From a virus: DNA of 64,000 nt. The notes under the pieces are model-generated. The model worked only from the letters and a program-made list of their open reading frames with translations, searched no databases and was not told the origin of the DNA. Shown here one piece after another: positions 22,868-64,000 of this stretch (position 1 is its first letter; each line of letters opens with the position of its first letter). Where the stretch lies: the IMG/VR virus record IMGVR_UViG_3300036770_005214, positions 44,123 to 108,122 of that record. One strand, written 5' to 3'. Both the position numbers and the translations under genes were made by a program.

Positions 22868-22900
22868 AAGGGCCCACGTCGCTCGCCGCCGTGGGCCTTT
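22868..22900 (+). terminator. Possible intrinsic terminator
   Basis: AAGGGCCCACG ... CGTGGGCCTTT inverted repeat after the stop codon. Confidence 0.45.
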
Positions 22901-22916
22901 GCACTTGGAGGGAGCC

Positions 22917-43195: not shown

Positions 43196-45160
43196 TCAAC
43201 GCTTCGACGTCCGACGCTTGGGGGCGGACCGCTTCTTGACCGCGCCGTGCTTCCGACGAGCCGTGCGGAGCGCCGCCTCCGCCACCACATCGCCAACCGC
43301 GGGGAGAGCCGCAGAGGACTTCGCCTTGGTGGTCTTGGCCTTGGTGGTCTTGGCCTTGGTGGTCTTGGCAGGCCGCGCCTTGATGCTGCGCTCCCCGGGG
43401 AGCTTGCGCTTGGGGTTCTCCCGAACCCAGTTGTCCTGCGCAATACTCAAGGGGTAGCCCATCTTAATCTGGGCCGCGATGTACTTCTGGTAGCTGGTCC
43501 TGCGGGTTCCGGCCTTCGCCTTGGAGGCCTTGGTGCTCTTGCCCTTGGTGCTCTTGCCCTTGGTGGTCTTCTTGATCACTTCGGTCTTCGCAGTCTCGCC
43601 CTTGTGAGCCCGCCAAGCCGCCGCCGCTTCCTTCATGGACTTGCCAGCCTTACGCTGCGCGGCCACGAACTTGTTGTAGGCGCTGACCTTGCGGGTTCCA
43701 GACTTCGCCTTGGAGGCCTTCGGCTTCGCGGTCTTCGGCTTCGAGGTCTTCGGCTTCGCGGTCTTCTTCACAGTCTTCTTGGCGGTCGTGCCGGACTGCG
43801 CACGCCATGCGGCTGCCGCCTGCGCCATCGTCTTGCCAGCCTTCATCTGGGCCCCGACGAACTTGTTGTAGGCGCTGACCCCAGCCCCGGTCGTCAGTTC
43901 CGAGAGCCCAGCGGCCATCACAGCTTCATCCCACTCCCTCTTCTCCCTTTCAGTCATAGCGTTGGAACGACGACGACGAGCACCCGCTCCCAGCCCCCCG
44001 CCCACTGGGCGCCCTGGCAGATTGTTGACCCACTCATCGAGATACTTGTTGTAGGCGCTGACCTTGCGGGTTCCCGTCTTGCGGGTCTTGCGGGTCTTGC
44101 GGGTCTTGCGGGCCTTACGGGCCTTGGGCGCCGCCTCCGCGGCGGTGGTGGTCTTGGCCTTGGTGCTCTTCGCCTTCCGACGTACCGTGACCTTGGTTCC
44201 AATCCGCTTCTTCGTGGACTTGGTGCAGACGTAGCGGGTGCCTTCCTTGGTGTAGGTGCAGACCTCCTTCGAGCCCTCCACCGTCATCACCACCTGGACG
44301 CCAGTGCGGCACCAAGCGCGGATGAGGCGCTGGAGACCCTTCTTCTGGGCCGCAGCAGAGCCTTCCAGCGACCCCGTGACGGTCTTGGTGCCCCGACGCA
44401 CGCTCACAGAGCGAACGCCATCCTTTGCGGCTCCGATGTGGATCCGAACCGACGTAATCTTCCTGGCCATAGCTCGCTCCTTATTGCCTTCTTCGGCGGC
44501 GATGTGGGTTGCCCGACGGCTCCCGGCAAGGGTGCTCGACGAGACGATGCGGTCACCCCGCTTGACGTAGGTGTACTGCCGTCCAGACTCCTCGTCCTCG
44601 ACAAGGACCTTGGAACCTGGAGTAGCCCACTTTTCGATCAGTTCTTGCATCACAGAACGCTGCGCCCTCGCATCGCCCATGAGCGGAGTGTTGCTGTACT
44701 TGTCTTTCCCAGTGCTGGGATCGGTGTAAGTGACCTGCACAAAGCGCAGGCGCTTGCCGTCCTCTTTCGTGACGACCATGCGGACCAAGTAGACGTGGCC
44801 CTCAACGACCTTCCGCTTGGCTTTCTTGGGGCTCTTGCCAGCAGAGTCGGCGCTCTTCATGGACCCTCCGCGCGGGGACACCGGGGCGAAACTGCCATCG
44901 TCCTGCCGGCCGTAGGTCACGGTCTTTCCAGTCGCCTCGTAGGTGACGATGACCTTATTGCCCTTGTACCTCTGAATCTGATCTTCAAGGTCCGCTCGCC
45001 GTTCGGCCTCCGTATTGCCCCGGATAAAAGTCCCTTGGCCAGAGATCCGCTCTCCCCGTGCGCCCAGTTGTTGAACGCTCACATTCCGCCGTAGGTTGTG
45101 AACGCTCTTGCCCACGGACATCCGAACCAAACTGACCGCGACTGACTTCCGTGCAGGCAT
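43196..45160 (-). CDS. Highly basic DNA-condensing protein (H1-like tails, HMG/YABBY-like SAYNKF repeats)
   Basis: K/R/T/A-rich repeats (KTTKA, RKT, AKPKT) and four S[AY]YNK/YQK..W units. Confidence 0.75.
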   Translation of the reverse strand: MPARKSVAVSLVRMSVGKSVHNLRRNVSVQQLGARGERISGQGTFIRGNTEAERRADLEDQIQRYKGNKVIVTYEATGKTVTYGRQDDGSFAPVSPRGGSMKSADSAGKSPKKAKRKVVEGHVYLVRMVVTKEDGKRLRFVQVTYTDPSTGKDKYSNTPLMGDARAQRSVMQELIEKWATPGSKVLVEDEESGRQYTYVKRGDRIVSSSTLAGSRRATHIAAEEGNKERAMARKITSVRIHIGAAKDGVRSVSVRRGTKTVTGSLEGSAAAQKKGLQRLIRAWCRTGVQVVMTVEGSKEVCTYTKEGTRYVCTKSTKKRIGTKVTVRRKAKSTKAKTTTAAEAAPKARKARKTRKTRKTRKTGTRKVSAYNKYLDEWVNNLPGRPVGGGLGAGARRRRSNAMTEREKREWDEAVMAAGLSELTTGAGVSAYNKFVGAQMKAGKTMAQAAAAWRAQSGTTAKKTVKKTAKPKTSKPKTAKPKASKAKSGTRKVSAYNKFVAAQRKAGKSMKEAAAAWRAHKGETAKTEVIKKTTKGKSTKGKSTKASKAKAGTRRTSYQKYIAAQIKMGYPLSIAQDNWVRENPKRKLPGERSIKARPAKTTKAKTTKAKTTKAKSSAALPAVGDVVAEAALRTARRKHGAVKKRSAPKRRTSKR

Positions 45161-45212
45161 CCGATCTCCCAAGGTACCGCACCGTTGGTATCAGAATGGG
45201 CCTTGAAACTGC

Positions 45213-46335: not shown

Positions 46336-46788
46336 CTACCAGCGCCGGCCATTCCGCTGGGGGATGGGATCGTTGATCTCCACCGTTTCGCCGTCCGTAT
46401 CGCGCAGGAGTGCGCCGACCTGCACGCCCCCCGAAGAGGTCGCCCGGCGACTCCGCGAACGCCCCGACTCGGGCGTGAGCAGCACTTGACCCGTGTCCAA
46501 CCGCTCCGCCTTCCACCGCCGGCCTCGTTGCACGGCGATGCGGAGACCTTCCACGATCTCCTTCTCTTGCCAATCGTCCCGCGGAGCCACCGCAGCGATG
46601 GGCGTCTCGTACTCGCCGCCTTCCCAGTAGGCAGGGGACCAGCCGCCCGGACGGTCCGTCGTGTAGACGCTCGCCGAGGCGTTCGCCGCCGAGAAGCCGC
46701 CGGGGTTGACCGAGTTCGCGGTGATGTACCCCGCGTGCTCACCGATCCGTGCGAGCATCTGCCCATTCACCCGTCCGATGCGCCGCAT
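46336..46788 (-). CDS. Putative virion protein (MRRIG tag)
   Basis: Starts MRRIGRVNG..RIGEH; TGATG coupling. Confidence 0.55.
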   Translation of the reverse strand: MRRIGRVNGQMLARIGEHAGYITANSVNPGGFSAANASASVYTTDRPGGWSPAYWEGGEYETPIAAVAPRDDWQEKEIVEGLRIAVQRGRRWKAERLDTGQVLLTPESGRSRSRRATSSGGVQVGALLRDTDGETVEINDPIPQRNGRRW

Positions 46789-47096
46789 CACGACTCCCCA
46801 CGCGCCGGAACCCGCGGCGCTTGCACAGGGTAACCCATGAACGTGGTAGGAGGCTTGCCCTCCGTCCACCGCTCTACCACGAGTGTCAGCTTGCCCTGCG
46901 AAAGTCCCGTGCGGACCTTGGCACGCTTCCCTCCCAACCCTTCCAGCCTTCGCGCCGCGATGCGAGGACGACGCCGCCCCGCCCGGTCCGCGATGCGCTT
47001 CCGCCGTGCGTCCCGAGCTTCGGTGACGTTACGGCTGAAGTCGAAAGCCGTGTTGATGCTCGTGAGCACCAGCACGATGTTGGTGAGGAAGCCCAC
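46788..47096 (-). CDS. Basic hypothetical protein with hydrophobic N-terminus
   Basis: GGAG RBS, operon context. Confidence 0.55.
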   Translation of the reverse strand: MGFLTNIVLVLTSINTAFDFSRNVTEARDARRKRIADRAGRRRPRIAARRLEGLGGKRAKVRTGLSQGKLTLVVERWTEGKPPTTFMGYPVQAPRVPARGES

Positions 47097-47099
47097 GCG

Positions 47100-47378
47100 T
47101 CACTCCCCCGCGTCGCCGCGAGAGGGCCAATCCAACAGGTTGTAGTTTTGGTACAACTTGTCGATGTCCACGCCGACGTCCGCCAGCTTCTCTTCCTTCC
47201 GCCGGAGCTTCGCGACTTCGCGCTCAATCCGAATGTGCTGCTTGAGGACGTCCTGGGTCCGCCGCCGAATCTTGTTGACCTCGCGGACCTCCGCCGGATC
47301 CCAGAAAGCGCCCACCGCGTTGTGTTGCCACATGCCTAACTCCTCTAGTTGTTTGTACTTTTCTTGGAAGTCGTACAC
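47100..47378 (-). CDS. Small coiled-coil protein
   Basis: Overlaps the upstream stop; operon context. Confidence 0.5.
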   Translation of the reverse strand: MYDFQEKYKQLEELGMWQHNAVGAFWDPAEVREVNKIRRRTQDVLKQHIRIEREVAKLRRKEEKLADVGVDIDKLYQNYNLLDWPSRGDAGE

Positions 47379-48313
47379 TACACATCCGCGAAGATGACCA
47401 CCGAACCGCCGTCCGTTGGCTCCACTTGCAAAGCACCGCGAGCCTTCGTGTTGATGCCGTACTTCAGCGCCTTGGCAAGGGCCAGATTGTTAATCATCGT
47501 CGCCTTGTCGGGAGCATGGGTCACCGTGACCGCCGAGCCGTCAAAGCGGTTGTTGTCGACGATGACCGTGCTCTCCCGAGGTTCCGAGACGGGGTAGCCG
47601 TTTTCCGCCAGAATGGTGCTGAACTCGGTCACCGCATCGGCCACCGCCCCGACGTAGCCCGTCCCAGGGGTAGCCGGCGTGGTCACATAGCGGTTGATCA
47701 GGAAGCCCACGAGCGCCCCGATCCCAGTCGCCACCCCGCGGTTCTTGCGGGCCACCGCATAACCAACCCCAGCCCCCACGAGCGAGTACAAGAGCGGGCC
47801 TGCTTCAGTCCCGAACCCCGCCGCCGCCGCGTCCTTCTTCTTGAACTTCTCCCGCACCGAGGTCACCGCCTTGGCGGTCCCTTGCTTCACGCTAGAGGCT
47901 GCTTTCGCAGTCCCTTGCTTCACACTGTAGGCCACCTTGTCAGCTACCTCGCCAGACTTGCGGAAGAACAGGCGACCGCCGACAGCGTGCAGGCGCCCAT
48001 AGGGTCCGGGCACCTTGTCGGCGCGCAAGAGCGCGGCCGTAGTCTCGTTCACCTTGTCGGACAAGTGCTGAAGCTCTTTGTAGAAGGGAGTACGGCTTTG
48101 CTTCCCATTCGGGTCTTTCTTCAGAACGTAGGCGGAGAAGAACGCGTTTAGTTTCGAGACGGCTCTTTCGATCTCCTGGAGATTCCCGGAGCCCATGCCG
48201 TACTCGTACATGGAAGTCTGCAAACCCACCAGCGGAGACGGATCAGCGTCGTAAGCGGTATTGTAGAAGTCCTCGACAGCGCCCACCGAGCTAATCATCC
48301 CGATGCGTTGCAT
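47378..48313 (-). CDS. Putative virion membrane protein, paralog A
   Basis: MQRIG start; two TM helices PLLYSLVGAGVGYAVA / GIGALVGFL; extra domain after YVG. Confidence 0.7.
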   Translation of the reverse strand: MQRIGMISSVGAVEDFYNTAYDADPSPLVGLQTSMYEYGMGSGNLQEIERAVSKLNAFFSAYVLKKDPNGKQSRTPFYKELQHLSDKVNETTAALLRADKVPGPYGRLHAVGGRLFFRKSGEVADKVAYSVKQGTAKAASSVKQGTAKAVTSVREKFKKKDAAAAGFGTEAGPLLYSLVGAGVGYAVARKNRGVATGIGALVGFLINRYVTTPATPGTGYVGAVADAVTEFSTILAENGYPVSEPRESTVIVDNNRFDGSAVTVTHAPDKATMINNLALAKALKYGINTKARGALQVEPTDGGSVVIFADV

Positions 48314-48339
48314 GTGCGTCTCTCCAGGTCAGTAAGGGA

Positions 48340-48915
48340 CTATTGCCGTAGGGCTTGGTTGGCCAGGAAGCCCACGAGCGCCCCAACACCAGCGGCCATT
48401 CCGCGGTTCTTGCGGGCCACCGCGTAGCCGACACCCGCTCCCATGAGCGAGTACAACAGCGGCGCCGAGTCAGACCCGAACCCAGCGGACTCGGCCCCCT
48501 TCCCAGCGCGGGGCTGGACCCCTGGACCCAGAGAGACCCGCGCTCCAGGATCCCGGAAGGACAGACGACCGTTGGTAACGGTAAGACGCCCATGTGGGCC
48601 GGGCACCCCGTCGCGTCGCAGATCGAACGCCACGAGTTGATTCACTGCGGCAGCGTATTCTTCAAGCTCTTTATAGAACAAGTCACGAGGCTTGCCCGAG
48701 GCCTCTTTCTCTGAAACGTAGTCAGAAAAATAATCGTTCACTTTCTTGATCTCAAACTGAACATCCCCGATGCCCCTTTCGCCTCGGTACATCATAAGAA
48801 TGGTCTGCTTCAAGGAATCGTAGGCTCTTCCCCCAGGACCGGGGGAGATAGCGTTCTCCCAAGCGTACAATCCCCTGGCCTCGCTCACTGACCCAATCAT
48901 TCCGATGCGTTGCAT
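48340..48915 (-). CDS. Putative virion membrane protein, paralog B
   Basis: MQRIG start; shares FYKEL, VPGP.GRL, AGFG and the TM pair with paralog A. Confidence 0.7.
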   Translation of the reverse strand: MQRIGMIGSVSEARGLYAWENAISPGPGGRAYDSLKQTILMMYRGERGIGDVQFEIKKVNDYFSDYVSEKEASGKPRDLFYKELEEYAAAVNQLVAFDLRRDGVPGPHGRLTVTNGRLSFRDPGARVSLGPGVQPRAGKGAESAGFGSDSAPLLYSLMGAGVGYAVARKNRGMAAGVGALVGFLANQALRQ

Positions 48916-48930
48916 GTGCAGATCTCCGAG

Positions 48931-49248
48931 TCAGTAGCAGGAGCTACTGCCGTAGGGTTGTGGCCCACAATGTAGCGCATCGTAGACAAGGGATTCCATG
49001 CGACGGCGGCCCGGTCCGCCCATCCCGCCGAGGTCAGCGTGGAGGAGGTAACCGTCCTCGTCGAAGGTGAAACGCTCCGGGAAGCGATCTTCCAAGAGCG
49101 AGGCCAGTTGGATGCGGCGAGCACCCAAGCGGAGGATACGCGCACGGTACGGCCCGAGGTTGCGCCCCACCGCTCGCGCACGCTGGTACTTCGACGATGC
49201 GACGTCGAGGCTGCGCAGCACCAGCATGTAGCGGTTGAACAGGGCCAT
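48931..49248 (-). CDS. Hypothetical protein
   Basis: ORF within the morphogenesis block. Confidence 0.5.
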   Translation of the reverse strand: MALFNRYMLVLRSLDVASSKYQRARAVGRNLGPYRARILRLGARRIQLASLLEDRFPERFTFDEDGYLLHADLGGMGGPGRRRMESLVYDALHCGPQPYGSSSCY

Positions 49249-49277
49249 CTGCTCTCGTTCCGTTTGCACGCGAACCC

Positions 49278-50174
49278 CTAGATAGAGCGGCCGGCGGCAC
49301 GCCGACGTCGTGACTGGTCCATGTACCAACGGGGCACCGGCATCCCGAGCACCGCTGACGGGTCGTCGTAGACCACGCTTCCATCCGGCTGACGGATCTT
49401 CGTCACCGCATGGAACAGCCGCACGCCCGAGCCGCCGCCCATCCCGGAAGCGGGGCCCTCAATCAAGCGGCAGTACACGCTGGCGTCGTGGCCAGCGTTG
49501 ATCAGTTCGCCCGCACGGTAGGCGGCGAGGCCTTCGCAGTCGTCATGCCCGCGGCGAGCGATCTCTTCGGCATCCCACCACAACTCGGGCGACCCCTCGG
49601 TCTGATACCGGATGCTCCCCGAGTACAACCGGGGGAGACCCTTCGCCTCGATCTGCTTCGCGTTGTGACGTGCGATGGCGTTGTTGATGTCGACCACCGG
49701 AGACGCCGTGGAGTCGTCGATGGTCAGCATCATGTACTCGTTGGTCCGGCCCCGGTCGCCCGGCACCCGAACCCGCTCGCCCCCCGCGAACCCCATCACG
49801 GCGCCCGAGCCCGAGACGTACACGGGGCGACCGCTCTCGAAGCCGATGCGGGCCGCCGAGTCCTCGCCATAGATGCGTTCTTCGGCAGTCCGCCACGCCG
49901 CCAGCGTGCCCGCGGTCACACAGCCATCCTTGGAGGCCGTCACCGCGTCCCGCCACACGCCGTCGGTGCAGTTCACACGGCTCGGCGCACGGGGCACACG
50001 CCCCGCCCGGATCGAGCGCATGTTCCGCTGGACAAGGCCTTCCATGACGTCCGCGAGCGCCTGCTGACCACCATGCACGTTCAGCACGACCCGCATCCCG
50101 TCCTGCCGTGGGGGCAGTGGATGGGGGTCACGCTTCAGGATGGAGCCAGTCAGGCCGATCGCGATCTCGTTCAC
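49278..50174 (-). CDS. Transglutaminase-fold cysteine enzyme (putative maturation protease) with inactive N-terminal repeat
   Basis: Triad GHDDCEGLAA (Cys), FHAV (His), YDDPS (Asp). Confidence 0.75.
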   Translation of the reverse strand: MNEIAIGLTGSILKRDPHPLPPRQDGMRVVLNVHGGQQALADVMEGLVQRNMRSIRAGRVPRAPSRVNCTDGVWRDAVTASKDGCVTAGTLAAWRTAEERIYGEDSAARIGFESGRPVYVSGSGAVMGFAGGERVRVPGDRGRTNEYMMLTIDDSTASPVVDINNAIARHNAKQIEAKGLPRLYSGSIRYQTEGSPELWWDAEEIARRGHDDCEGLAAYRAGELINAGHDASVYCRLIEGPASGMGGGSGVRLFHAVTKIRQPDGSVVYDDPSAVLGMPVPRWYMDQSRRRRAAGRSI

Positions 50175-50198
50175 GGAAACCCCCGCCCGGATGGGCTG

Positions 50199-50525
50199 TC
50201 AGTAGTGACGGCGGTGGTGGAGACGACCGACGTACATGCCCTCAGCGGCGGCGGGAGCAGCCTCCTCCGCGTTTGCTTTCGCTTCCGCGATGAGCCGGTC
50301 AGATTCCAAACGCTCCTCGGACTTCCGACGGCCCAGGACCGGGACCCCTGCTGCGGGCTTGCCCATGATCATGGGGAGGACGGTCTTGCCGGCCACAGCA
50401 CCGATGACGCCGTACAGGGCGGCGCGGGGCAGGGTGCCCTTGCCCGAGCCCTTCATCGCGTAGCTGGCACCGACACCGATGGCGGCGCCGATCAAGAGGT
50501 TCCGGTCTTTGAGCATATCCAACAT
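50199..50525 (-). CDS. Glycine-zipper membrane protein with C-terminal EGMYVG tag
   Basis: Two hydrophobic helices; AGGAG RBS. Confidence 0.65.
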   Translation of the reverse strand: MLDMLKDRNLLIGAAIGVGASYAMKGSGKGTLPRAALYGVIGAVAGKTVLPMIMGKPAAGVPVLGRRKSEERLESDRLIAEAKANAEEAAPAAAEGMYVGRLHHRRHY

Positions 50526-50562
50526 GGTCTTCTCCTAAGGGGCGGAAGGGGGTGAGAGGGGA

Positions 50563-51330
50563 CTAGAAGTAGATCTGACCGATGTAGTGGAAGCCTTCGG
50601 CTTCGGCCTCATCGCCTTCCGCAACCAACTCGTCGATTGCTGCTTGCCGACGGTCGGCGGCCATCTGAGCGAGGATGTCATCGTCGTCTTCATCGCCTTC
50701 CGCGATCAGGTCAGCGGTTCGCCGCTCTGCGAGTTGGCGCTGAGCTTCCGCTGCATCCTCTGCTGCTTTACGGGCGGCTCGCTGGGCGTTTTGGGTCTCC
50801 CGACTACCCCGTTCCTCCGCTTCACGGGCGGCCTCCAACTCTGCCGCAGCTTTGCGCTGCAACTCCTCCGCAGCCCTGAGGGCGTCTGCTGCTTTCCTCG
50901 CCTCACGAGCGGCCCGGTCGGCATCTCGTTGGGCCTCCGCAGCTTCCAGGTTCAACGCTTGGCGCGCTTGCAGTTCTTCAGCCTTGGTCAAAGCACGATT
51001 CGCACCTGCCCTGCGGATGGCCGTCACGGGGGACATCGCGGCCTTTTTGGCAGCGACCGCAGCCTTGTTCACCGCGATCGTGCGACGACGAGCGGCCTCT
51101 AGCTTGGCCTGCTTGGCGTTCTGCTCGGCGAGCGCCAACTGCTCCTGGGGCGACAGAGGGCGCTGGGGCAGGAGCATCCGGCCGGCAGCCGCCCCGATGG
51201 CGCCGAACACCGCAGCGCGGACGAGGGATCCCTTTGCAGGTCCGCCGACTGCGTAGCTGGCGACAACACCCAACGCGAGACCCGTCAGGGTGCTTGGGTT
51301 GGTCAGTCCGAGGGATTCGAGGGTGGCCAT
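50563..51330 (-). CDS. Membrane-anchored coiled-coil protein with C-terminal EGFHYIG tag
   Basis: N-terminal TM pair paralogous to the 50199 gene; long Ala/Glu/Arg coiled coil. Confidence 0.65.
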   Translation of the reverse strand: MATLESLGLTNPSTLTGLALGVVASYAVGGPAKGSLVRAAVFGAIGAAAGRMLLPQRPLSPQEQLALAEQNAKQAKLEAARRRTIAVNKAAVAAKKAAMSPVTAIRRAGANRALTKAEELQARQALNLEAAEAQRDADRAAREARKAADALRAAEELQRKAAAELEAAREAEERGSRETQNAQRAARKAAEDAAEAQRQLAERRTADLIAEGDEDDDDILAQMAADRRQAAIDELVAEGDEAEAEGFHYIGQIYF

Positions 51331-51344
51331 GATGGTTCCTGCGG

Positions 51345-51794
51345 CTAGTAGGAGGTCTGGTTCAACACGCGAGCGGCCTGCGCACGGTGCTGGGGACGGA
51401 TGTAGGACGCGAACTTGGTGGCCGTGGCGGCGACGACCGCGGCGTCATCGGCGGGGCCGGGGACGTCCACGGGGTTGACGATGTAGAGCAGGGCGCCCGC
51501 GATCGACAGCTTCGCAGCCATGGGGGTCTCGGGGTCAAGCATGACGTAGTACAGCGCGACCACTTCGTTCGAGAAGGGGACGTGACCCGCGATGGCGAGA
51601 AGCCGGGGAAGGACCCGCTGCGCCTTGCCGAGATCTTTCGTCGAGGCCGCTGGGACGGACAGACGGTCGAGCGAGGACGAGCCCCACGACGCCACCGACA
51701 GCCGCTCGGGCAGCCCGTAGAAGCCCCCAGACGCCCGCTTGCCGCGGGAGCCTACCGAGAGCCGTTCCGGGAGCCCGTAGAAGGTCGCCATCAC
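51345..51794 (-). CDS. YkvA/DUF1232-like membrane protein with N-terminal repeats
   Basis: DPETPMAAKL..GALLYIVNPVD..G.ADD. Confidence 0.7.
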   Translation of the reverse strand: MMATFYGLPERLSVGSRGKRASGGFYGLPERLSVASWGSSSLDRLSVPAASTKDLGKAQRVLPRLLAIAGHVPFSNEVVALYYVMLDPETPMAAKLSIAGALLYIVNPVDVPGPADDAAVVAATATKFASYIRPQHRAQAARVLNQTSY

Positions 51795-52252
51795 TGCACC
51801 AGCGACGCGACGAGGTAGCCCACACCAGCACCGATGGCAGCCGACTGGATCCGGCGCCCGGAGCCGCCCAGCAGGAGGCCCACCGTGGCCCCGAGCATGA
51901 CGGACGTCCCGGTGCCAATGTCCGCGATCAGCCCCTCCGACTTGGCGGCGTTGACCACCTCGGTCGGGACCACGCGGGCTGCTTCCGCCTTCTTGGCCTT
52001 GCCCTTCGCGGCCTTGGTGATCTTGGTCGGGTCCTGCTCCTCGGGAGCCGCCGGAGCCGCCGCCTTCTTCTTGCCGAAGAGCTTGCCGAGCCCCTTGCGC
52101 TCCTCGGGAGGCTTGGCCGCATCCTTCGCGGCACGAGCAGCCGCGGCCTTCGCCCCGATGCCGATCAACGGCACCAGGAAGAACACCCCGCTCTCGGGCT
52201 CTTCGATGTAGCCGACGCGCTCATACGCGACGACTTCGCCACGCCGGCCCAT
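51791..52252 (-). CDS. Putative virion membrane protein
   Basis: ERVG near the N-terminus, hydrophobic helix, C-terminal glycine zippers. Confidence 0.6.
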   Translation of the reverse strand: MGRRGEVVAYERVGYIEEPESGVFFLVPLIGIGAKAAAARAAKDAAKPPEERKGLGKLFGKKKAAAPAAPEEQDPTKITKAAKGKAKKAEAARVVPTEVVNAAKSEGLIADIGTGTSVMLGATVGLLLGGSGRRIQSAAIGAGVGYLVASLVQ

Positions 52253-52255
52253 GTT

Positions 52256-52852
52256 TCAGCGACCCCGACGGCGCGGAGCGTAGTTGGAGCCAAACTGGTC
52301 ATCGGCGTCGTAGCCGGGGTGGAACTGGTTGCCGTAGTAGGGGTCGTACTCGTCCGACTCGCCGCGGAAGGGGTCCGCGAGGCCCCAGTCGAGGTCGCCG
52401 ACGTTGCCGATGTGGACCAGCCCCTCCGCCTCGGCCTCGTCCCCGTCGAGGTCGTCATCCATGCGGCGCAGCGAGCGCGAGGCCCGCGCCGCTTCCCGGC
52501 CCATCTGGCGATAGGAGCGACGGATCTGCCGGCCGCTCGGGGCGTCCTCGGCAAGCTCACCAGCGCACTCCGCGAGGCCCGCGAGCGCCGCCTCGACGCC
52601 ATACGAACTCGGGCAGGCCCGGAGCACGTCATACATGCCCTCGATGGCCTCCACCACTTCCGCCTTGGTCGGGGCGGGCATCGGGCTGCCCTCGCCGTCT
52701 TCGTCATCGCCGAACTCGTCCATCACGGTCGACGAGAGGCGCTTCGAGGCGCCCTGCTTCGCCTGCCCGTAGGCCGGCTTGACGACCGAAGAGAACTCGG
52801 CGCCGATCCGCTTGAACAGGCCCAGCTTCCCAACTTGTCCGATGCGACGCAT
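52256..52852 (-). CDS. Putative virion protein (MRRIG and EGLVHIG tags)
   Basis: AAGGAG RBS; MRRIGQVG..; EAEAEGLVHIGNVGD. Confidence 0.6.
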   Translation of the reverse strand: MRRIGQVGKLGLFKRIGAEFSSVVKPAYGQAKQGASKRLSSTVMDEFGDDEDGEGSPMPAPTKAEVVEAIEGMYDVLRACPSSYGVEAALAGLAECAGELAEDAPSGRQIRRSYRQMGREAARASRSLRRMDDDLDGDEAEAEGLVHIGNVGDLDWGLADPFRGESDEYDPYYGNQFHPGYDADDQFGSNYAPRRRGR

Positions 52853-52862
52853 GATGGACTCC

Positions 52863-53618
52863 TTATCCGAGACAGTAGTATGCGACTTCGTAGGTGGTAG
52901 GCAGGATGCCCCCGGAAGCCGCAAGGGTGTAGCGAAGACCGGGGACAACAGCGATCCGGTCACTGCGGGGAGACGTCAACACTTCGTCGTAAACCAGCAC
53001 ACCCGCCGCATTGTACCCGCGGAGTTGTGCGCCAGGGCTGGTCGACAGGGTGACGACCTCAAACGAGGAACAGAAGGGCGGCAGGTCGAGCAGGACCTCG
53101 GCCGCCGCCGTGCTCACCGTCTGGAAGTCGCTCCAGTAGGAGAAGCCCGCCGTCGCCTCGTCGAGCCCGTAGTGAGCCGTGATCGGGAAGGCGTTGGGGT
53201 TCTCGACCTCGAAGTCGATCGAGCGCCCGAAGACGTACAGAATCGACGCGTTGCCCACCACGCCGTTGCTCAATGCCGCCTGCACGAACACCCGGCGGGT
53301 GATGACCTCGTTGCCGGACGAGGCCCGGACAAAGAAACGCAAGCCGGCCGATCCGTTCGCCGGCAGCACCGTCCCCGGGGGGATGGCGGCGGCAAGCTGA
53401 ATCTTCCAGCGGAAGATGTGGTTTGGCAGACTGCCGATGCGGAGCGCCTGCCGCGGGTTCCCCACGAATCCCGCCAGCGCGGCGACCTCTACTTGGTCGC
53501 CAATCTTGTACCCAATCAGGTCCCGGTCGAACACCTGATCGCGCGTCGTCACCGCGTAGGGTGGCGTCTGCTCAAACGGGTTCTGGTGCCAGTTGGCAAG
53601 GTTGCGGGGGAAAGCCAT
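52863..53618 (-). CDS. Beta-rich putative minor capsid/penton protein
   Basis: All-beta pattern, directly downstream of the capsid candidate. Confidence 0.5.
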   Translation of the reverse strand: MAFPRNLANWHQNPFEQTPPYAVTTRDQVFDRDLIGYKIGDQVEVAALAGFVGNPRQALRIGSLPNHIFRWKIQLAAAIPPGTVLPANGSAGLRFFVRASSGNEVITRRVFVQAALSNGVVGNASILYVFGRSIDFEVENPNAFPITAHYGLDEATAGFSYWSDFQTVSTAAAEVLLDLPPFCSSFEVVTLSTSPGAQLRGYNAAGVLVYDEVLTSPRSDRIAVVPGLRYTLAASGGILPTTYEVAYYCLG

Positions 53619-53669
53619 GTGGGTAGAGCCTCAAGGGCCGATAGATCAGAACAGACAGAGGGAGGTAAG

Positions 53670-53711
53670 AAAAAAAGCGGCCGAGCACCCCGTTCGGGAC
53701 ACTCGGCCGCT
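53670..53711 (-). terminator. Rho-independent terminator after the capsid candidate
   Basis: Minus strand AGCGGCCGAG..CTCGGCCGCT followed by a T-run (A7 on plus). Confidence 0.85.
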
Positions 53712-53761
53712 AGTCAGCCCGGCGGATGGGGAAGTCCCCCGGTCAACGGGCCGAGGGTCGA

Positions 53762-54445
53762 TCAGCCGCCGACGCCGGACAGCGCGAGCGCCGCGTCGAT
53801 GAGCACCTTCTCAAGCGCCTGCTGCGCCATGTAGGGCGAAAGCTCGTCACCGATCAGACCGCCAGAGACCGTGTGGCCCGAGCCAGCGTCGATGTTCTGG
53901 AGGTTGATACGGAACTGCTGACCGACGTTGATCGGACGGCGGCCGATGACCTGCATGAAGCGCGTAGAATCACGGCTCCAGAGGGACAGCGGGATGCCCT
54001 GCGACCCGACGTTGACCGGCAACCCGGCGACCGTGATACCGGTCACGAGGATGCTGGCCGGATCGTCCGAGTCGAGGATGACCGACTTGGCCCAGAAGGT
54101 ACGGTTCAGGGTGTCGTTCAGGTTGCCGGTGCCGCCCGCCGCGATGGTGGTGGACCCGAGGCCGTCAAACTGGTTCTCTTGGACCAGATTGGCAGCGCCC
54201 GCGAGCCGGTAGGACTCGACGAGGTTCGCGCGAGCCGGGGGCATCTCGAAGTCGACGTCCGACTCGTCAGCTTCGGCCAGCATCGCCTCGTACTTCGCAG
54301 CGCGACCGCGAGCGCGGGCGGCACGGCGAGCGAGACGGCCAGCGCGGCGGGGGCCGTACGCGGCGCCCGAGTCAACGTCGCCCACGCCGGAATCGGCGAA
54401 GACTTCGCCAGTGGCGGTGTCGATGTAAGCGTTCATCAGGGACAT
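53762..54445 (-). CDS. Putative single-jelly-roll major capsid protein
   Basis: Basic N-arm (RRAGRLARRAARARGR) plus about 110-aa eight-strand-like domain (FWAKSVIL, ILVTGITVAG, GIPLSLW, VGQQFRINLQN, VSGGLIG); own structured leader and strong terminator. Confidence 0.6.
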   Translation of the reverse strand: MSLMNAYIDTATGEVFADSGVGDVDSGAAYGPRRAGRLARRAARARGRAAKYEAMLAEADESDVDFEMPPARANLVESYRLAGAANLVQENQFDGLGSTTIAAGGTGNLNDTLNRTFWAKSVILDSDDPASILVTGITVAGLPVNVGSQGIPLSLWSRDSTRFMQVIGRRPINVGQQFRINLQNIDAGSGHTVSGGLIGDELSPYMAQQALEKVLIDAALALSGVGG

Positions 54446-54501
54446 GGTGTCCTCACAGGTGTTTGGAAGTTGAAGGAATCACGCAGTCACGCACGCAGAA
54501 G

Positions 54502-54590
54502 ATGGGCCGGGTAGCTAGGAGACCAGTTGTTTTGGAAGGATGGAACCGGGATGGCCCGATTGCACTGGACGACGGGCTACCCAAGCCCAT
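54502..54590 (-). other. Structured RNA element upstream of the capsid candidate
   Basis: Nested stems ATGGGC/GCCCAT, GGGTAGC/GCTACCC, CCAGT/ACTGG, AATCGGG/CCCGGTT. Confidence 0.5.
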
Positions 54591-54598
54591 GAGACCCG

Positions 54599-55405
54599 TC
54601 AGCGTCCGCGACCGCCGCGGAAACGGGGGAGGACGCGAACGGGAGCCAAGGGACGGCGGCGGGGCACGAGCACCGGAGCGGCCGGACCGCGGCGCACGAC
54701 AACGGACGGGGCGTCGTCATCGTCAACGGCGTCGCGCAGAAGCTCCTGCGCCTCCTCTTCCAGGTTCTTCTTCTTCAGCCGGCCTTCGAGACGAGCGACG
54801 CGCTTGTCCTTGCCCTTGGCCTTCGCCTTCAAGATCTTGGCCTGGATGCGGGCCGCGCGCTTCTCGTCCTTGTCCACGTCGTCACCGCCGACGTCGACAG
54901 TGCCGATGTGGATCAGGCCTTCGCTGTCCATGCCGTCCACGTCCATCCCGTCCACATCGCCCACGTCGATGTAGCCGGCCTCGTAGCCAGCCGCGGAGGC
55001 CGCGGGGATCAGCTTCGAGCTACGGGCGAAGGACAGACCAGCCGGGACGATCATGCCGATCGCCGCGTTCTGGAGCAGGTGCCGGTAGTTGGTCAGCGCC
55101 TTGGTCTGGCCAGCGATCAGGGTCGCCGCCGCGCCGACGATGCCGAGCGGAAGGGTCAGACCGGTAGCCTGCTCGTACTTGCCCTGGAACTTGCTCTCCA
55201 GGGTCGCGGCGGTCGCCGCACCAGCCACCACAGCCAGCGCGTTCTTGGCGGTGCTCATGGTGAAGGCGCCGGCGAGGCGCGACATGCCCTTGCGGCTCTT
55301 GCGGCTCTTACGGCTCTTGCGACCGCTCTTGCGGCTGCCCTTGCCCCGCTTGTTGCTCTTCCGGCTCTTACCGCCGCCAAACGAACTCGGCATGGGGAGA
55401 CTCAT
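54599..55405 (-). CDS. Putative major virion membrane protein
   Basis: Basic (SRK)n N-terminus, about three hydrophobic helices, VGDVD and EGLIHIG tags, basic C-terminus. Confidence 0.65.
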   Translation of the reverse strand: MSLPMPSSFGGGKSRKSNKRGKGSRKSGRKSRKSRKSRKGMSRLAGAFTMSTAKNALAVVAGAATAATLESKFQGKYEQATGLTLPLGIVGAAATLIAGQTKALTNYRHLLQNAAIGMIVPAGLSFARSSKLIPAASAAGYEAGYIDVGDVDGMDVDGMDSEGLIHIGTVDVGGDDVDKDEKRAARIQAKILKAKAKGKDKRVARLEGRLKKKNLEEEAQELLRDAVDDDDAPSVVVRRGPAAPVLVPRRRPLAPVRVLPRFRGGRGR

Positions 55406-55508
55406 CGAAACCTCCGACGTGGTACGGCTACCACGAGAATCAGGTGAAAGCAGAACTGTAGTCGCTCAAAAGGGGTATGCTCTCGCATCGCCCCGGTTCC
55501 CTGACGGT

Positions 55509-57371
55509 CTACTTCCGCCAGAACTCGTCAGGACCTTGGGTCCACGCGGGGGGGATACGCTTCACACGAGGCGTCGCGTCCCACTTGCGCGGAGACTTCT
55601 CCAACCAAGCAGAATCCCCGTCCGACCAGAACCCGCCGATGCTCGCGTTCGTGCCGTAGCTACGGTAGCCGCCCGGCGCGAACATGGAGGGAGGAGGGGC
55701 ACCAAAGGAAGGCATCGGCCCCGCGTAGGACATCGGGGGCTGCGGCGGCATCGGATACTGCGGCATCTGGGGCTGCGGCATCGGATAGCCGTAGGGCTGC
55801 GGCTGCGGATACGGCTGGGGCTGCTGCTGTTGGCGACGACGCCCGCCACCGCCGCCACGTCCCTGGCCGCCGAAGGCCCGACCGGGCAGCGGGACCGCGG
55901 AGAGGCCCCGGCGCTGCAACTTCTCGGCAAGCTCCCGCTCCTCTTTCTCATCCTTGAGGCGCTGGACAAGCGCCTGCATCCCGGGACGGTCTTGGACTTC
56001 AAGGCCCGCCTGCCGACGCGACTGCCGCTGCGCCTTCAGCGCCTTCAAGCGGGACGCGAGGCCCCCGCGACCACCACGCCCGGAGACCATCGCACCCGTG
56101 TAGAACCCGGTCGCCTTGGCTTCCGCTTCGGCCTTCCAGGGGGTGTAGTCCTCGCCGTCGGAAAGCTCCTTGAACTTCGCGCGGAGCTTCTGGAGCTTGG
56201 CCCAGGTCTTCTCAAGCTGTTTCTTCACCTTCTCGGGGTTGTCCTTCGAGAACGTGCCCTTCAACTTCTCGAAGATGTTGCCGACGTTCGGGGCGACGAT
56301 GCCGAAGCACCCATCCCCCATCGGAACCACCTCGCCTCCCTCGATCTCCCCGGTGAGCACGCCCACGAGGACCGACATCGCCGCGATGCCCGCTGCGTTG
56401 TAGCCCACGCCCGCCGTCGTCGGCTCCGCGGTGAAGGTGTAGACGATCTGGCTGTCCGACACGACAGCCGCCGTGTAGTAGATGCCTTCACCGCCCGCGA
56501 GGTTCTTCGCAAGCTCGGAGAGTTCGGAGCGGACAGTGGCGGTCAGCGGACCATTGATGGTGACGGTCGCGGCTTCAACGTCCACACTGTCTGCCATTCC
56601 CTTGCCAGCGACGCGCTTCCCAAACTTTGCGGCGATCTTGAGCGCCTTCTCTTGGCGCTTGGCCAGCTTCTTCTGGTACTCGGACTGGAACGTCTGGACT
56701 TCACCGACGCCACCAGCGCCCCACTGCATCGGGCCCGCGTCGCCGTAGCGGGGAGCGAGCGCGAACTTGCCCCAGAAGGAGGGCTCGCGGCTGTAGCAAC
56801 CGGTCCACAGGTCGTAGCCGGTCTCGGGCGAGCAGCAGTACAGGCCGGGCCACGCTTCGGAAGCGGCCTCGCACATGTTGTACTGCGGCAGATCAAGGTA
56901 GCTGTTGAAGTTGAAGTCGGTGTCGCCGACGAGCGCACCGACCGGGCGCACATCGTAGGCGCTCGCGGCTTCTTCGCGGTTCCAGGGGTCGTCCATCGAG
57001 ATGGAGGGCGAGTAGGAGAGGGTGTCATCCCCCGCGCCGTACTTCCAGTAGTCGCGACGCTCGCGCAACGCGCCGACGCTCGCCAAGCCTTCCGCCCGGG
57101 GGTTCCACTGATACAGCGGCATCCGGTCGGTGAAGTACGACTGGTGGTCCATCGCGTGATCGGCCTTGTGCCACGCAGAGTCCCAGTAGTCGTAGTCGTC
57201 GTCCGCAGTCCACGGCGAGAAGTTGTTGAGGTGGCCCACAATGGCGCCGAGGATGCCTGAAGCAGTCGTCGGGCACTGGATGACCATCGCGTGCTCGTCG
57301 CCGACGGGTCCGCTGCAACGCTCGTTCTCGCGCTCACCGACCAGCCGACCGATCGCGATGCTCTCGAACAT
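55509..57371 (-). CDS. Putative virion polyprotein punctuated by VG motifs
   Basis: GGAGG RBS; ten VG dipeptides separating compositionally distinct segments. Confidence 0.6.
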   Translation of the reverse strand: MFESIAIGRLVGERENERCSGPVGDEHAMVIQCPTTASGILGAIVGHLNNFSPWTADDDYDYWDSAWHKADHAMDHQSYFTDRMPLYQWNPRAEGLASVGALRERRDYWKYGAGDDTLSYSPSISMDDPWNREEAASAYDVRPVGALVGDTDFNFNSYLDLPQYNMCEAASEAWPGLYCCSPETGYDLWTGCYSREPSFWGKFALAPRYGDAGPMQWGAGGVGEVQTFQSEYQKKLAKRQEKALKIAAKFGKRVAGKGMADSVDVEAATVTINGPLTATVRSELSELAKNLAGGEGIYYTAAVVSDSQIVYTFTAEPTTAGVGYNAAGIAAMSVLVGVLTGEIEGGEVVPMGDGCFGIVAPNVGNIFEKLKGTFSKDNPEKVKKQLEKTWAKLQKLRAKFKELSDGEDYTPWKAEAEAKATGFYTGAMVSGRGGRGGLASRLKALKAQRQSRRQAGLEVQDRPGMQALVQRLKDEKEERELAEKLQRRGLSAVPLPGRAFGGQGRGGGGGRRRQQQQPQPYPQPQPYGYPMPQPQMPQYPMPPQPPMSYAGPMPSFGAPPPSMFAPGGYRSYGTNASIGGFWSDGDSAWLEKSPRKWDATPRVKRIPPAWTQGPDEFWRK

Positions 57372-57482: not shown

Positions 57483-59327
57483 TCATTCGTCCTCGTCCTC
57501 GTCCTCGTCTTCGTCCTCGTCATCCCCTTCATCTTCGTCGTCGAAGTCGTCATCTTCGTCTTCGTCTTCGTCTTCGTCGTCTTCTTCGTCCTCGTCCTCG
57601 TCTTCGTCGTCATCATCGAAGCTGACGGCGGGCAGCTTACCCCCTCGGGGCTTCGGCTTCGCCTTGGGCTTGGGCTTCGGCTTGGCCCCCCGACGGGGCT
57701 TCACCTCCTCCTCTTCCTCTTCCTCTCCGTCTTCCGAGAGGAGCAACGGGTCCTCGACGTCCTCATCCTCGTCTTCGCCATGCCCGAGGGCGCCGGACAA
57801 CTCGCTGCGGAAGCTCTCCGCAAAGCCGGGGCTCGCGTGCGCCAGCTTCTCGACGGCCTTGCGCCGCGTCTCGCTCGGGAGCATCTGAAGCACGAGGGCG
57901 GCCTGCTCGGGCGTCACGTTCGCGAGGTCGAGACCACCGAGGCCCCCCGACTTCTTCTCGACTTCGCGCCGGCGACCCCGCTGGCGCGCGACCCGCGACT
58001 CCCGCTCGGTGCGGCGCCGCTCCCGGCGAACGCGCGTGATCTCCCCGATGACGGGCGTGCTGGAGATCTCGTCAATGTCCTCGTCCACCTCGTCGCGGGC
58101 GGGCGCCTGCGGGGCAGCGACGGGAGCCTCGTTCGCCTGCTGGCCTTGCTGGCCCTGTTGGACCATCCCGAGCAGCGTGCTGAGCATCCCGCCCTCGTCG
58201 CCCGACTTCGCCTGTTTCTTGAGTCGCTTGATCTCCCGTACCACCTTCTCATAGGCCCGGCGCATGGTCCCCAAGTGCGTCTCCGCGACCTCGGCGCGTT
58301 GCTTGTACCGGACCAGCTTCTCTTGCGCGATCGACGCCCGGCGCTCGGCGTCCGAGAGGGAGTCGCGAATGTCGTCGACCTCCTCCTCCAGGGCTTTGTA
58401 CTCGTCTACCATCTCGCGCTTCTCGCGCTTCCATTCCTCGCGGATGCGGTCCCACTCCTCCCGCTGACGCTGGCGCTCGGTCTCGATGACCTCCACCTTC
58501 GCCTTGGCGCGCTCCCCCTCGCGGGTCATCACGAGCAGTTGGTCATTGTGCGCCTTCAAGATGGCGACCATGTTCTCGCGAAGGGTCCGCTGGTCCTCGA
58601 CGGACAGCTTGCGGTCCTCTTTCAAGACTTCGATGATCTGCTCGGCTTGCTTCCCCTCGCGGCTCGACGACCGGGCGCTGATCTCCGTCAGCGTGGTCAC
58701 CAACCAGTTGATCGTGGAGAAGGTGACGCTCGACTCGTAAGCCTGGGGACGCGCTTCGTGCATGGGTGCCACACGGGGTTCGAGGACGGGAGACGGGGCC
58801 GGGGGAGGATAGGCCGGGCGGGGCGCCTGCGGAGGCGTCACAAGCTGCTGCGGCGTGTAGGCGGGTGCTGGGGCGGGTGCGGGCGCGGGAGCGGGCGCTG
58901 GGGCCATCGTGGGCGCAGGGGAAGGCATCGCCGGCAGCCGGGGAGGCGGCGAGACCATGCCGTGCTCCGGGGAGACCGCGTGGCGCTCGCTGACGCAGTT
59001 GAGATCGAAGCCCTCGGCGTCGACCCAGGTGTCCATCCTCTCGTCCTGAATCTGCACCAGGAGCCGGAACTGCACCACCGCCTCGTCCGGGTATCGCTCC
59101 AAGATCTCGTCGACCTTGCGGAAGACCTCCGTCTGCACCTCGGACTCGCTCTTGAGACCAATCTGCACATACTCGGGCGCGAACTTCGGTCCTTGCCCCG
59201 TCGCACGCGCCGAGATGGCCACGCGTCCGGGAAGCTCGTCTAGGGGTACGTCGTCTTCTTCGAGGCGTAGCTGGGCCGTCAGCCACTCCCCCGCGCTCGT
59301 CGCGTTGTAGAACCACCCTCGGGCCAT
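57483..59327 (-). CDS. Pro-rich, long coiled-coil protein with poly-D/E tail (scaffold-like)
   Basis: AAGGAGG RBS; PAPAP segment, long coiled coil, about 35-residue acidic tail. Confidence 0.75.
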   Translation of the reverse strand: MARGWFYNATSAGEWLTAQLRLEEDDVPLDELPGRVAISARATGQGPKFAPEYVQIGLKSESEVQTEVFRKVDEILERYPDEAVVQFRLLVQIQDERMDTWVDAEGFDLNCVSERHAVSPEHGMVSPPPRLPAMPSPAPTMAPAPAPAPAPAPAPAYTPQQLVTPPQAPRPAYPPPAPSPVLEPRVAPMHEARPQAYESSVTFSTINWLVTTLTEISARSSSREGKQAEQIIEVLKEDRKLSVEDQRTLRENMVAILKAHNDQLLVMTREGERAKAKVEVIETERQRQREEWDRIREEWKREKREMVDEYKALEEEVDDIRDSLSDAERRASIAQEKLVRYKQRAEVAETHLGTMRRAYEKVVREIKRLKKQAKSGDEGGMLSTLLGMVQQGQQGQQANEAPVAAPQAPARDEVDEDIDEISSTPVIGEITRVRRERRRTERESRVARQRGRRREVEKKSGGLGGLDLANVTPEQAALVLQMLPSETRRKAVEKLAHASPGFAESFRSELSGALGHGEDEDEDVEDPLLLSEDGEEEEEEEVKPRRGAKPKPKPKAKPKPRGGKLPAVSFDDDDEDEDEDEEDDEDEDEDEDDDFDDEDEGDDEDEDEDEDEDE

Positions 59328-63513: not shown

Positions 63514-64000
63514 GGGATCACCCGAAACAGAGCCAAAGTGCAGTTGTCTTTCGACCCGGCCTTGACCGCGCTCTCACACGCCCACACCGCCGTGCGGGTC
63601 ATCGCTGGCACCGTGCGGTCGGTCATCGCGCGGGCGAAGAACGTCCCCACCCAGGACCGGTTGTGCGCACGGCTCCGCAGGTCATCGTCCAGAAGCACGT
63701 CGAAGCCGTCCGAGTAGGCGACGTAGACGACGCCGGGGACGAGCGGGACCGAGCCCGTATCGAACGCGTCCGAGTTGGTGTGGCTCAGGCAACGCGTCAC
63801 CAGATGCGCGAAGCCGTGCGGAGCGGTCAGGTGCTCCAAGCGGTCTCGGCTGTAGATGGCGCACAGCCCCGAGTCCCCCATCCACCCGAAGTCGAGGCGT
63901 TTCGCGTCCGCGTTGGCCTCGAAGGCGACGATGGTGGTCGACCCCTCGCCCTCGCTCACGCCCGCGCGGGAGGCTTCCAGCACCCGATCCCATCCGTCGG
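63510..64000 (-). CDS. PP2C-family Ser/Thr phosphatase (5'-truncated)
   Basis: STT, GDSG, LT..H, VTRCL, SDG, DNCT motifs; frame stays open to the window edge. Confidence 0.8.
   Translation of the reverse strand, partial: DGWDRVLEASRAGVSEGEGSTTIVAFEANADAKRLDFGWMGDSGLCAIYSRDRLEHLTAPHGFAHLVTRCLSHTNSDAFDTGSVPLVPGVVYVAYSDGFDVLLDDDLRSRAHNRSWVGTFFARAMTDRTVPAMTRTAVWACESAVKAGSKDNCTLALFRVIP

Follow-up and report, generated by a model that had tools for sequence, protein, structure and literature searches.

A short glycine-ended peptide tag in the morphogenesis gene block of a large phage with a probable internal membrane

Do otherwise dissimilar proteins, encoded side by side in one viral genome, carry the same few residues, and if so, to what end? 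The question is raised by a run of minus-strand genes, high in third-position guanine plus cytosine (GC), at 46.3-59.3 kb of the 64,000-nucleotide stretch analysed here (the window: bases 44,123-108,122 of the 108,122-bp, 65% GC record IMGVR_UViG_3300036770_005214 of IMG/VR); a preliminary description had proposed that an [IV]G peptide tag is shared by a dozen of the proteins as a sorting or maturation code. Genes are named below by their lower window coordinate. Searches of this block with Pfam and PHROGs are nearly empty, returning only sub-threshold glycine-zipper matches (47378, 50563 and 51791) and, for 51345, a match to a PHROG of unknown function. Analysis of the block and its relatives reveals a tag more specific than [IV]G, which is enriched, frame-specific and conserved in position across the virus family, and which probably serves as a label on proteins that are to be built into the particle.

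Copies of the tag in the window

The family consensus of the tag is G-Phi-[IV]-[ILV]-G-x-Phi (Phi, hydrophobic residue), a hydrophobic stretch of 5-8 residues bounded by glycines; in the clade of the window it takes the form G-[LFMY]-x-[HYD]-[IV]-G-x-Phi, usually behind an acidic run. EG[LFM]x?[HY][IV]G, the core motif, is matched four times among the 108 predicted proteins (50199, 50563, 52256 and 54599), whereas composition-matched shuffling of the proteome as a whole predicts 0.021 matches, and none of 2000 shuffles reaches four; all four copies lie within 50.2-55.4 kb and each is preceded by an acidic run. The enrichment over a composition-matched background that the preliminary description anticipated is therefore found for the specific motif. 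All of the strings quoted there are present in the genes named, and the two copies placed close to a C-terminus are indeed 8 (50199) and 4 (50563) residues from it, but only four of the five proteins listed as carrying the EG-tag fit the core motif, EGLASVG of 55509 being a loose copy. The internal and C-terminal copies are as follows.

50226..50243, minus strand: EGMYVG, in the 108-residue two-helix membrane protein 50199-50525, 8 residues before the C-terminus, with the tail RLHHRRHY
50578..50598, minus strand: EGFHYIG, in the 255-residue protein 50563-51330 (membrane hairpin, followed by coiled coil and tag), 4 residues short of the C-terminus
51914..51937, minus strand: EGLIADIG, a looser copy read from the window sequence only, in 51791-52252, directly ahead of the C-terminal glycine-zipper helices
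52406..52426, minus strand: EGLVHIG, in the acidic soluble protein 52256-52852, at the start of a 57-residue C-terminal block
54902..54922, minus strand: EGLIHIG, in the membrane protein 54599-55405, the second of two tandem copies
54959..54976, minus strand: GYIDVG, in 54599-55405, aligning with G-Phi-[IV]-[ILV]-G of distant orthologues
57072..57092, minus strand: EGLASVG, a loose copy, in the protein of 620 or 635 residues 55509-57416

The specific copies lie outside hydrophobic windows and beside acidic runs. When the Gly-flanked form of the pattern Phi-Phi-Phi-G-x-Phi is counted outside membrane segments, the block contains three copies against 0.2 expected, and the rest of the genome none. 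Because the patterns were chosen post hoc, an unbiased scan was added that took every 7-residue window in the block in turn as the seed and scored it by its best matches in three other proteins. Among approximately 3,700 block windows EGLVHIG ranks first and MRRIGQV second, and the maximum statistic is reached by 8 of 260 shuffles (P ~0.03); since neither the acidic surroundings nor the clustering nor the gapped copy enters into the scan, the test is conservative. The segment GDEAEAEG-x3-IG occurs in both 50563 and 52256, whose codons for it show six synonymous differences, and a recent duplication of this DNA is thereby ruled out.

Bare [IV]G is a different matter. Genome-wide it occurs 339 times, exactly the 339 expected. 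Within the block there are 73 copies against 43 expected, and IG is the most over-represented x-Gly dipeptide (2.2-fold), with 27 of the 73 falling in hydrophobic, glycine-zipper membrane segments; without membrane segments the rate is 1.33% in the block and 0.93% in the rest of the genome. The claim of a shared tag thus holds for the specific motifs, whereas its extension to a dozen proteins and to bare [IV]G is largely a matter of membrane-helix composition, and MYYVG, ERVG and VGDVD, likewise cited as instances, are present but amount to nothing beyond chance. At the nucleotide level, RTHGG is in excess only when read in codon frame 0 on the sense strand (4.86 versus 2.43 per kb), indicating that the excess acts at the peptide level and ruling out a DNA-level motif.

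A further set of copies opens proteins. M.RIG has four matches against 0.17 expected, M[QR]RIG being found, as first described, at the start of 46336, 47378, 48340 and 52256, and IAIG is likewise present close to the start of 49278 and 55509.

52838..52852, minus strand: MRRIG, true start of 52256, with AAGGAG 7 nucleotides upstream; all 11 homologues are called from MRRIG
46774..46788, minus strand: MRRIG, probable true start of 46336, with GGGGAG 8 nucleotides upstream
48299..48313, minus strand: MQRIG, N-terminus of 47378-48313, a paralogue of 48340
48901..48915, minus strand: MQRIG, N-terminus of 48340-48915
50154..50174, minus strand: MNEIAIG, N-terminus of the transglutaminase-like enzyme 49278, in a segment modelled as disordered (predicted local distance difference test score, pLDDT, <30)
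57348..57371, minus strand: MFESIAIG, possible true N-terminus (M16) of 55509

With these starts, [IV]G occurs inside the first 12 residues of 6 of 15 block proteins and 5 of 93 others, P = 8e-4, a value that hinges on three start codons picked by us. The 7-residue string IAIGLTG of the 49278 N-terminus is also found, identical, in the C-terminal hydrophobic, probably membrane-spanning, segment of the protein encoded at 22899-23579 on the plus strand; this match may be chance.

Conservation among relatives

Related DNA is found in two complete IMG/VR genomes with terminal repeats, of 178 kb (L005) and 117 kb (L006), and on ten metagenome contigs, whose open reading frames were taken from stop to stop with a composition filter, several start codons being assigned by inference. 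In the distant loci BLASTP detects only the capsid-associated protein A (53762), the capsid candidate B (52863) and the 49278 enzyme, all three described below. The exact pattern of the window clade is retained only in a 95%-identical relative and is absent from the distant ones; non-conservation, to which this pointed, was dropped once positional orthologues had been aligned.

Three protein families carry the evidence. All of the 52256 homologues (n=11, 65-97% identity) start MRRIGQV and keep AEGLVHIG, and the 57-residue C-terminal block opened by EGLVHIG is invariant or nearly so among them, whereas the linker preceding it varies. Five of five 50563 homologues keep the N-terminal membrane hairpin and a C-terminal [AES]GF[HQ]Y[IV]GQIYF, while the coiled coil between hairpin and tag differs in sequence and ranges in length between 164 and 301 residues; the Glu of 'EG' is not conserved in this family, but the Gly-to-Gly core and the next four residues are. 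In close relatives the spacer from the hairpin to the tag measures anything between about 100 and about 240 residues, which would be strange in a tether or tape measure of fixed length. In ten distant loci the gene upstream of protein A is a true orthologue of 54599, with a common membrane core and a C-terminal VP...VRP.YR, and all ten orthologues carry G-Phi-[IV]-[ILV]-G-x-Phi at 67-105 residues from the C-terminal end, after an Ala/Pro-rich linker (GVVLGAL, GIVLGQL, GVILGEI, GMVIGNI, GIVVGRV, GIVIGRM, GVVVGVI, VVLGNI, GVVIGNV and GIVIGNV), at the place where 54599 of the window has the tandem variants GYIDVGDV and GLIHIGTV. The second Gly of the tag is invariant in an alignment (A6) of eight of these orthologues, and no position of the tag varies less than the final Gly. 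Residues after it are conserved like those before it, with a hydrophobic residue at position +2 and no variation in QIYF or NVGDLDW. The expectation of the preliminary description that homologues would keep the tag is thus borne out in the 52256, 50563 and 54599 families.

Further copies occur at protein termini in the relatives, among them C-terminal GRIVIGRLRR (L014), C-terminal GIVLGHIGDFVRR and N-terminal MNRIVIGKL (L013), C-terminal MAVIGNVWVR (L012) and N-terminal MVGAF (L005). Outside membrane segments the blocks of the relatives contain 13 instances of Phi-Phi-Phi-G-x-Phi against 1.0 expected, an approximately 13-fold excess reached by none of 100 shuffles, and eight of the Gly-flanked form against 0.4 expected; the non-block part of the genome studied here has three instances of the former in 27,253 residues. 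The presence of the tag at the same place in distant 54599 orthologues, together with its enrichment in the relatives' blocks, indicates by sequence comparison that it is a family-wide feature, and that the version used by the window clade has His, Tyr or Asp at its centre. Searches for further homologues yielded no match for the 52256 family in viral contigs, none for 55509 in a phage collection, and none for 47378 or 50563 in either complete distant relative; the other genomes scanned gave no look-alike stretch.

Docking, cleavage and other readings of the tag

The tag stands in flexible contexts (at extreme N-termini, near C-termini and after Ala/Pro-rich linkers) and on carriers that are otherwise unrelated: membrane anchors, a soluble acidic protein, an enzyme and, in relatives, protein A. 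Flexible context, a fixed tag amid drifting surroundings and diverse carriers are properties of a short linear motif with a common reader, and it is as a docking or sorting motif of this kind that we tentatively interpret the tag, while allowing somewhat less than an even chance that this is correct. We infer that the tag is bound: by offering one and the same short strand, the carriers would all engage a common partner, for which the capsid shell (52863 or 53762) or an assembly factor is the most plausible candidate, and in this way membrane anchors, soluble components and the transglutaminase-like enzyme would enter the particle together. Docking is favoured by the conservation of residues after the final Gly as well as before it, by the layout of 50563, in which anchor, spacer and end peptide follow one another as a tether would show, and by the little obvious purpose that trimming four residues would have. 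Several points weigh against it: the tag patterns were picked and refined after inspection of the data; the paralogy of 50199 with 50563 and of 47378 with 48340 leaves fewer independent carriers than are listed; a seed scan of the two complete distant relatives gives no dominant recurrent 7-residue string; and a loose near-C-terminal tag pattern, found in 8 of 80 block proteins and 3 of 92 controls, is not significantly enriched (P = 0.07). Three neighbouring genes bear on the choice of partner and on the alternatives.

52863..53618, minus strand: capsid candidate B, two beta-sandwich domains, matching PRD1 P3 and the STIV coat protein over both
53762..54445, minus strand: capsid-associated protein A, with an N-terminal arm of acidic run, Gly and basic helix, resembling the C-terminal half of 54599 orthologues
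49278..50174, minus strand: transglutaminase-like Cys-His-Asp enzyme (C213, H255, D270/D271), downstream of two capsid-type genes in four relatives

The model of B (pLDDT 87.5), whose family numbers 45 cluster representatives among 1.8 billion, has beta domains at residues 36-157 and 160-251. It aligns with PRD1 P3 (Z 7.7, root-mean-square deviation 5.9 A, 204 residues) and with the STIV coat protein (Z 7.5, 5.3 A, 197 residues), middling scores that unrelated single-domain sandwiches equal, and its Foldseek matches include the capsid proteins of STIV, phiCjT23, PBCV-1, FLiP, Wip1 and GC1, tectivirus capsid proteins among them. By the two-domain model and the matches to P3 and STIV, the candidate looks like a compact double jelly roll, not like the single one first proposed. 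Profile searches of A and B against the sequences of the PDB were empty, B alone had no match in viral contigs, and a protein-atlas search with A was uninformative. The B family sits in complete virus genomes of 108-178 kb; to our knowledge, the cultured bacterial viruses with a double jelly-roll fold have genomes of about 10-20 kb, far below this range.

Protein A has 22 homologues (45-93% identity). Outside the window's clade it starts M-x(1-5)-[IV]G-x-[VAL]P, with M-x(1-4)-[IV]G-x-[VA]P in most relatives, and several N-terminal copies stand behind clear GGAG ribosome sites; in the window's own clade this N-terminal [IV]G has been lost. The N-terminal arm of protein A shares a module with the C-terminal half of the 54599-type proteins (an acidic run, Gly-hydrophobic-Gly and an Arg-rich helix) in the window and in L005, L008, L011 and others, the two versions in L011 being EAGFLGRRARLRRIERRLARL and EAGVVWPFGRQARLSRIDRRIARL; the module looks like a duplication between adjacent genes that has been kept across the family.

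The enzyme 49278 and its four homologues (43-53% identity) have C213, H255 and D270/D271 invariant, in the order Cys-His-Asp. In an AlphaFold2 model (pLDDT 76.7 overall, mostly 75-96 in this part) Cys213 lies at the N-terminal end of helix 213-226, and the His and Asp lie on the next two strands (254-261 and 267-270), whereas residues 1-24, which include IAIG, are disordered. The top Foldseek match is TgpA (E 9.6e-4); VIA-align gives weak scores (Z 3.4-5.0) for 3kd4, PeiP, PeiW, 3isr, TglA, LapG and TgpA, of which 3kd4 and 3isr are putative cysteine proteases, and further weak matches are transglutaminases, PNGase and CPR-C4. The best matches cover residues ~154-298 at 6-18% identity, the N-terminal half having no counterpart, and no Pfam, PHROG or PDB-sequence profile match was obtained. 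No adenain or Ulp1 chain is among the fold matches listed for 49278, the remaining genome having been only partly screened. The transglutaminase-fold enzyme of the preliminary description is therefore retained, on the strength of an invariant triad and of fold matches that are coherent though weak (Z <=5), and we accept 49278, as modelled, as a transglutaminase-like Cys-His-Asp enzyme; that it is a protease we infer. Its N-terminal extension begins MFVSIG behind AGGAG in L006, certainly within the protein, and in the other three homologues DIIG, QAIG and IVLG occur in upstream reading frames that are possibly untranslated.

If 49278 is a protease, the tag might instead be a maturation site cut after its final Gly, which would take off N-terminal leaders of 4-7 residues, release C-terminal peptides that are short and in many cases basic, and separate the membrane anchor of the 54599-type proteins from their soluble half, in parallel with adenovirus maturation. 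The papain-like or transglutaminase-like placement of the invariant triad, the protease and isopeptidase members among the fold matches (3kd4, PeiP/PeiW, LapG, 3isr and CPR-C4), the position of the gene downstream of capsid genes in four relatives, the constancy of the final Gly, the many copies near termini with short and often basic tails (RLHHRRHY, RLRR and HIGDFVRR) and the copy in the enzyme's own N-terminal extension, which could be an autoprocessing site, all argue for cleavage, and adenovirus pVI, cut between IVGL and G, is a precedent (PMC4246237). However, the fold similarity is weak with no Pfam or PHROG match, such folds also include cell-wall isopeptidases and cross-linkers, cutting would remove the invariant QIYF, conserved like the residues upstream of the Gly, without obvious purpose, and protein A has lost its N-terminal [IV]G within the clade of the window, so that we regard cleavage as rather unlikely. 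Slightly less likely still is the larger scheme of a maturation system of the virus's own, in which a transglutaminase-fold cysteine protease would act on a Gly-ended tag in many virion precursors, near-terminal cuts freeing short basic peptides, in convergence with adenain but in a prokaryotic host; the adenain system itself belongs to adenoviruses, virophages and giant viruses. Docking and cleavage can coexist, as they do in T4.

Two other readings dispense with both a shared receptor and a protease. The tag could be a membrane-interface or self-association patch, GxxxG-like and beta-branched, that dips into the viral membrane or packs on the glycine-zipper helices of the small membrane proteins: the motif of the relatives is literally G-x-x-x-G with Ile or Val (GIVLG, GVVLG and GIVIG), at least six block proteins have glycine-zipper helices and most carriers are membrane proteins. 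Against this, the spacing between glycines varies (3 or 4 residues), the window copies have His, Tyr or Asp in the middle and strongly acidic surroundings, and there are soluble carriers too (52256 and the enzyme), which makes a patch of this kind improbable; a GxxxG or glycine-zipper transmembrane motif proper was rejected, the specific copies lying outside membrane-spanning hydrophobic helices. Alternatively the copies might have no common function and reflect paralogy, duplication of small modules and a Gly/Val/Ile-rich composition at 65% GC. The paralogue pairs 50199/50563 and 47378/48340 are of this nature, as is the module duplicated between the 54599-type C-terminal half and the arm of protein A; isolated identities of 6 in 7 residues between unrelated proteins are common here (hundreds of windows), and bare [IV]G stands at its genome-wide expectation. 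But a tag that is fixed while its flanks diverge or change length, that keeps its position in orthologues beyond BLASTP detection and that is enriched ~13-fold over shuffles in relatives leaves this explanation very unlikely.

The virus and comparison with known systems

At least six proteins of the block have glycine-zipper membrane helices, which fits the expectation for a virus with an internal membrane, and this large phage probably has one. Outside the block are a replication module (a family-A polymerase and helicases), a MoxR ATPase and, at 23545-24858 on the minus strand, a 437-residue protein with an SLT lytic transglycosylase/phage lysozyme domain, which points to a bacterial host with peptidoglycan and means that 49278 need not be the lysin. 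The protein A family has no match among 185,579 species genomes, so that no host can be assigned. No packaging ATPase was identified in the portion of the genome screened, and no description of this virus family (108-178 kb) was found in the literature.

Three further observations concern the record as a whole. Its first 121 bases repeat exactly 138 bases before its end (window ~63,863-63,983), with a gene split across the ends; the record is probably a closed circle or a terminally redundant genome of ~107,984 bp, although IMG/VR lists it as linear. Outside the window, record bases 9760-11121 (L002) encode a 453-residue, fibre-like protein with a match to phrog_1645 'virion structural protein' (E 1e-87) and 39% identity to proteins from cyanomyoviruses and from Puniceispirillum phage HMO-2011. 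Its gene belongs to a series of large, paralogous genes of fibre-like type, and the protein may represent a module for receptor binding that has been exchanged with tailed phages. At 57483-59327, on the minus strand, a 614-residue protein with 145 acidic residues and a C-terminal tail almost wholly of Asp and Glu adjoins very basic Lys/Arg-repeat proteins (43196-45172 and the N-terminal end of 54599), and these may be charge-balancing core or scaffold components.

How small membrane proteins meet a capsid shell is illustrated by PRD1 and PM2, in which the extramembrane parts of such proteins touch the double jelly-roll shell from inside. We know of no linear motif shared by these membrane-to-capsid anchors, and the genomes differ greatly in size (10-15 kb, versus 108-178 kb here). 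Encapsulins load cargo by a short, Gly-containing, hydrophobic terminal peptide that follows a flexible linker and docks the cargo inside the shell uncleaved, but their shell has the HK97 fold, their peptide has another consensus, and there is neither a membrane nor an associated protease.

In T4, the capsid targeting sequence on internal proteins is reportedly N-terminal, of ~10 residues and later removed by the head protease. The likeness lies in a short terminal peptide on unrelated proteins that directs their entry into the particle, with docking and cleavage side by side. Unlike the tag described here, which ends in Gly, occurs at N-terminal ends, at C-terminal ends and internally, belongs to a virus of jelly-roll type and has no sequence similarity to it, the T4 peptide belongs to a tailed phage of HK97 type, where a serine protease cleaves it at L/I-x-E; no L/I-x-E follows M[QR]RIG, MNEIAIG or MFESIAIG, and a targeting sequence of T4 type was rejected. 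A leader like that of type IV prepilins, which is short and basic, ends in Gly and precedes a hydrophobic helix of ~20 residues with Glu at +5, was also rejected: MQRIG and MRRIG are followed by MISSVGAVEDFY, QVGKLGLFKR and RVNGQMLAR, none of them hydrophobic.

Among enzymes, LapG, TgpA, PeiP and PeiW are the best, though weak, fold matches to 49278 and have the Cys-His-Asp arrangement; LapG cuts a di-alanine site, whereas PeiP and PeiW, pseudomurein endoisopeptidases, cut isopeptide bonds of the cell wall. The adenovirus protease adenain (AVP) has the consensus (M/I/L)XGG-X or (M/I/L)XGX-G, cut at the hyphen. The tag misfits this consensus, the residue before the last Gly being hydrophobic and not Gly. 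Adenoviruses nevertheless invite comparison: they are of the double jelly-roll lineage, to which the virus studied here may also belong, several of their precursors are cut at sites of a hydrophobic residue plus Gly near termini, as the tag proteins would be if cleaved, and their protease gene is part of the morphogenesis module. They differ in that AVP is Ulp1-like and 49278 transglutaminase-like, cleavage here being only putative. The cut in pVI frees the short, basic C-terminal peptide pVIc of 11 residues, and Met-Arg-Gly-Gly is a test substrate for AVP (PMC4246237).

In its manner of working the tag would thus resemble known targeting and maturation peptides, yet it appears to fit none of those compared. 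Sorting or maturation peptides are known from T4 (Mullaney and Black 1996, as listed in PMC9958956), encapsulins and adenoviruses; we know of none in the prokaryotic membrane-containing jelly-roll viruses, although our literature searches were not aimed at one. In these viruses the coupling of many small membrane proteins to the shell is poorly understood, and a compact conserved tag on at least 6-8 proteins of one morphogenesis block, family-wide, offers a concrete experimental handle. Should the tag after all be cleaved, Gly-directed maturation of the capsid would have been invented independently within the lineage to which the adenoviruses belong.

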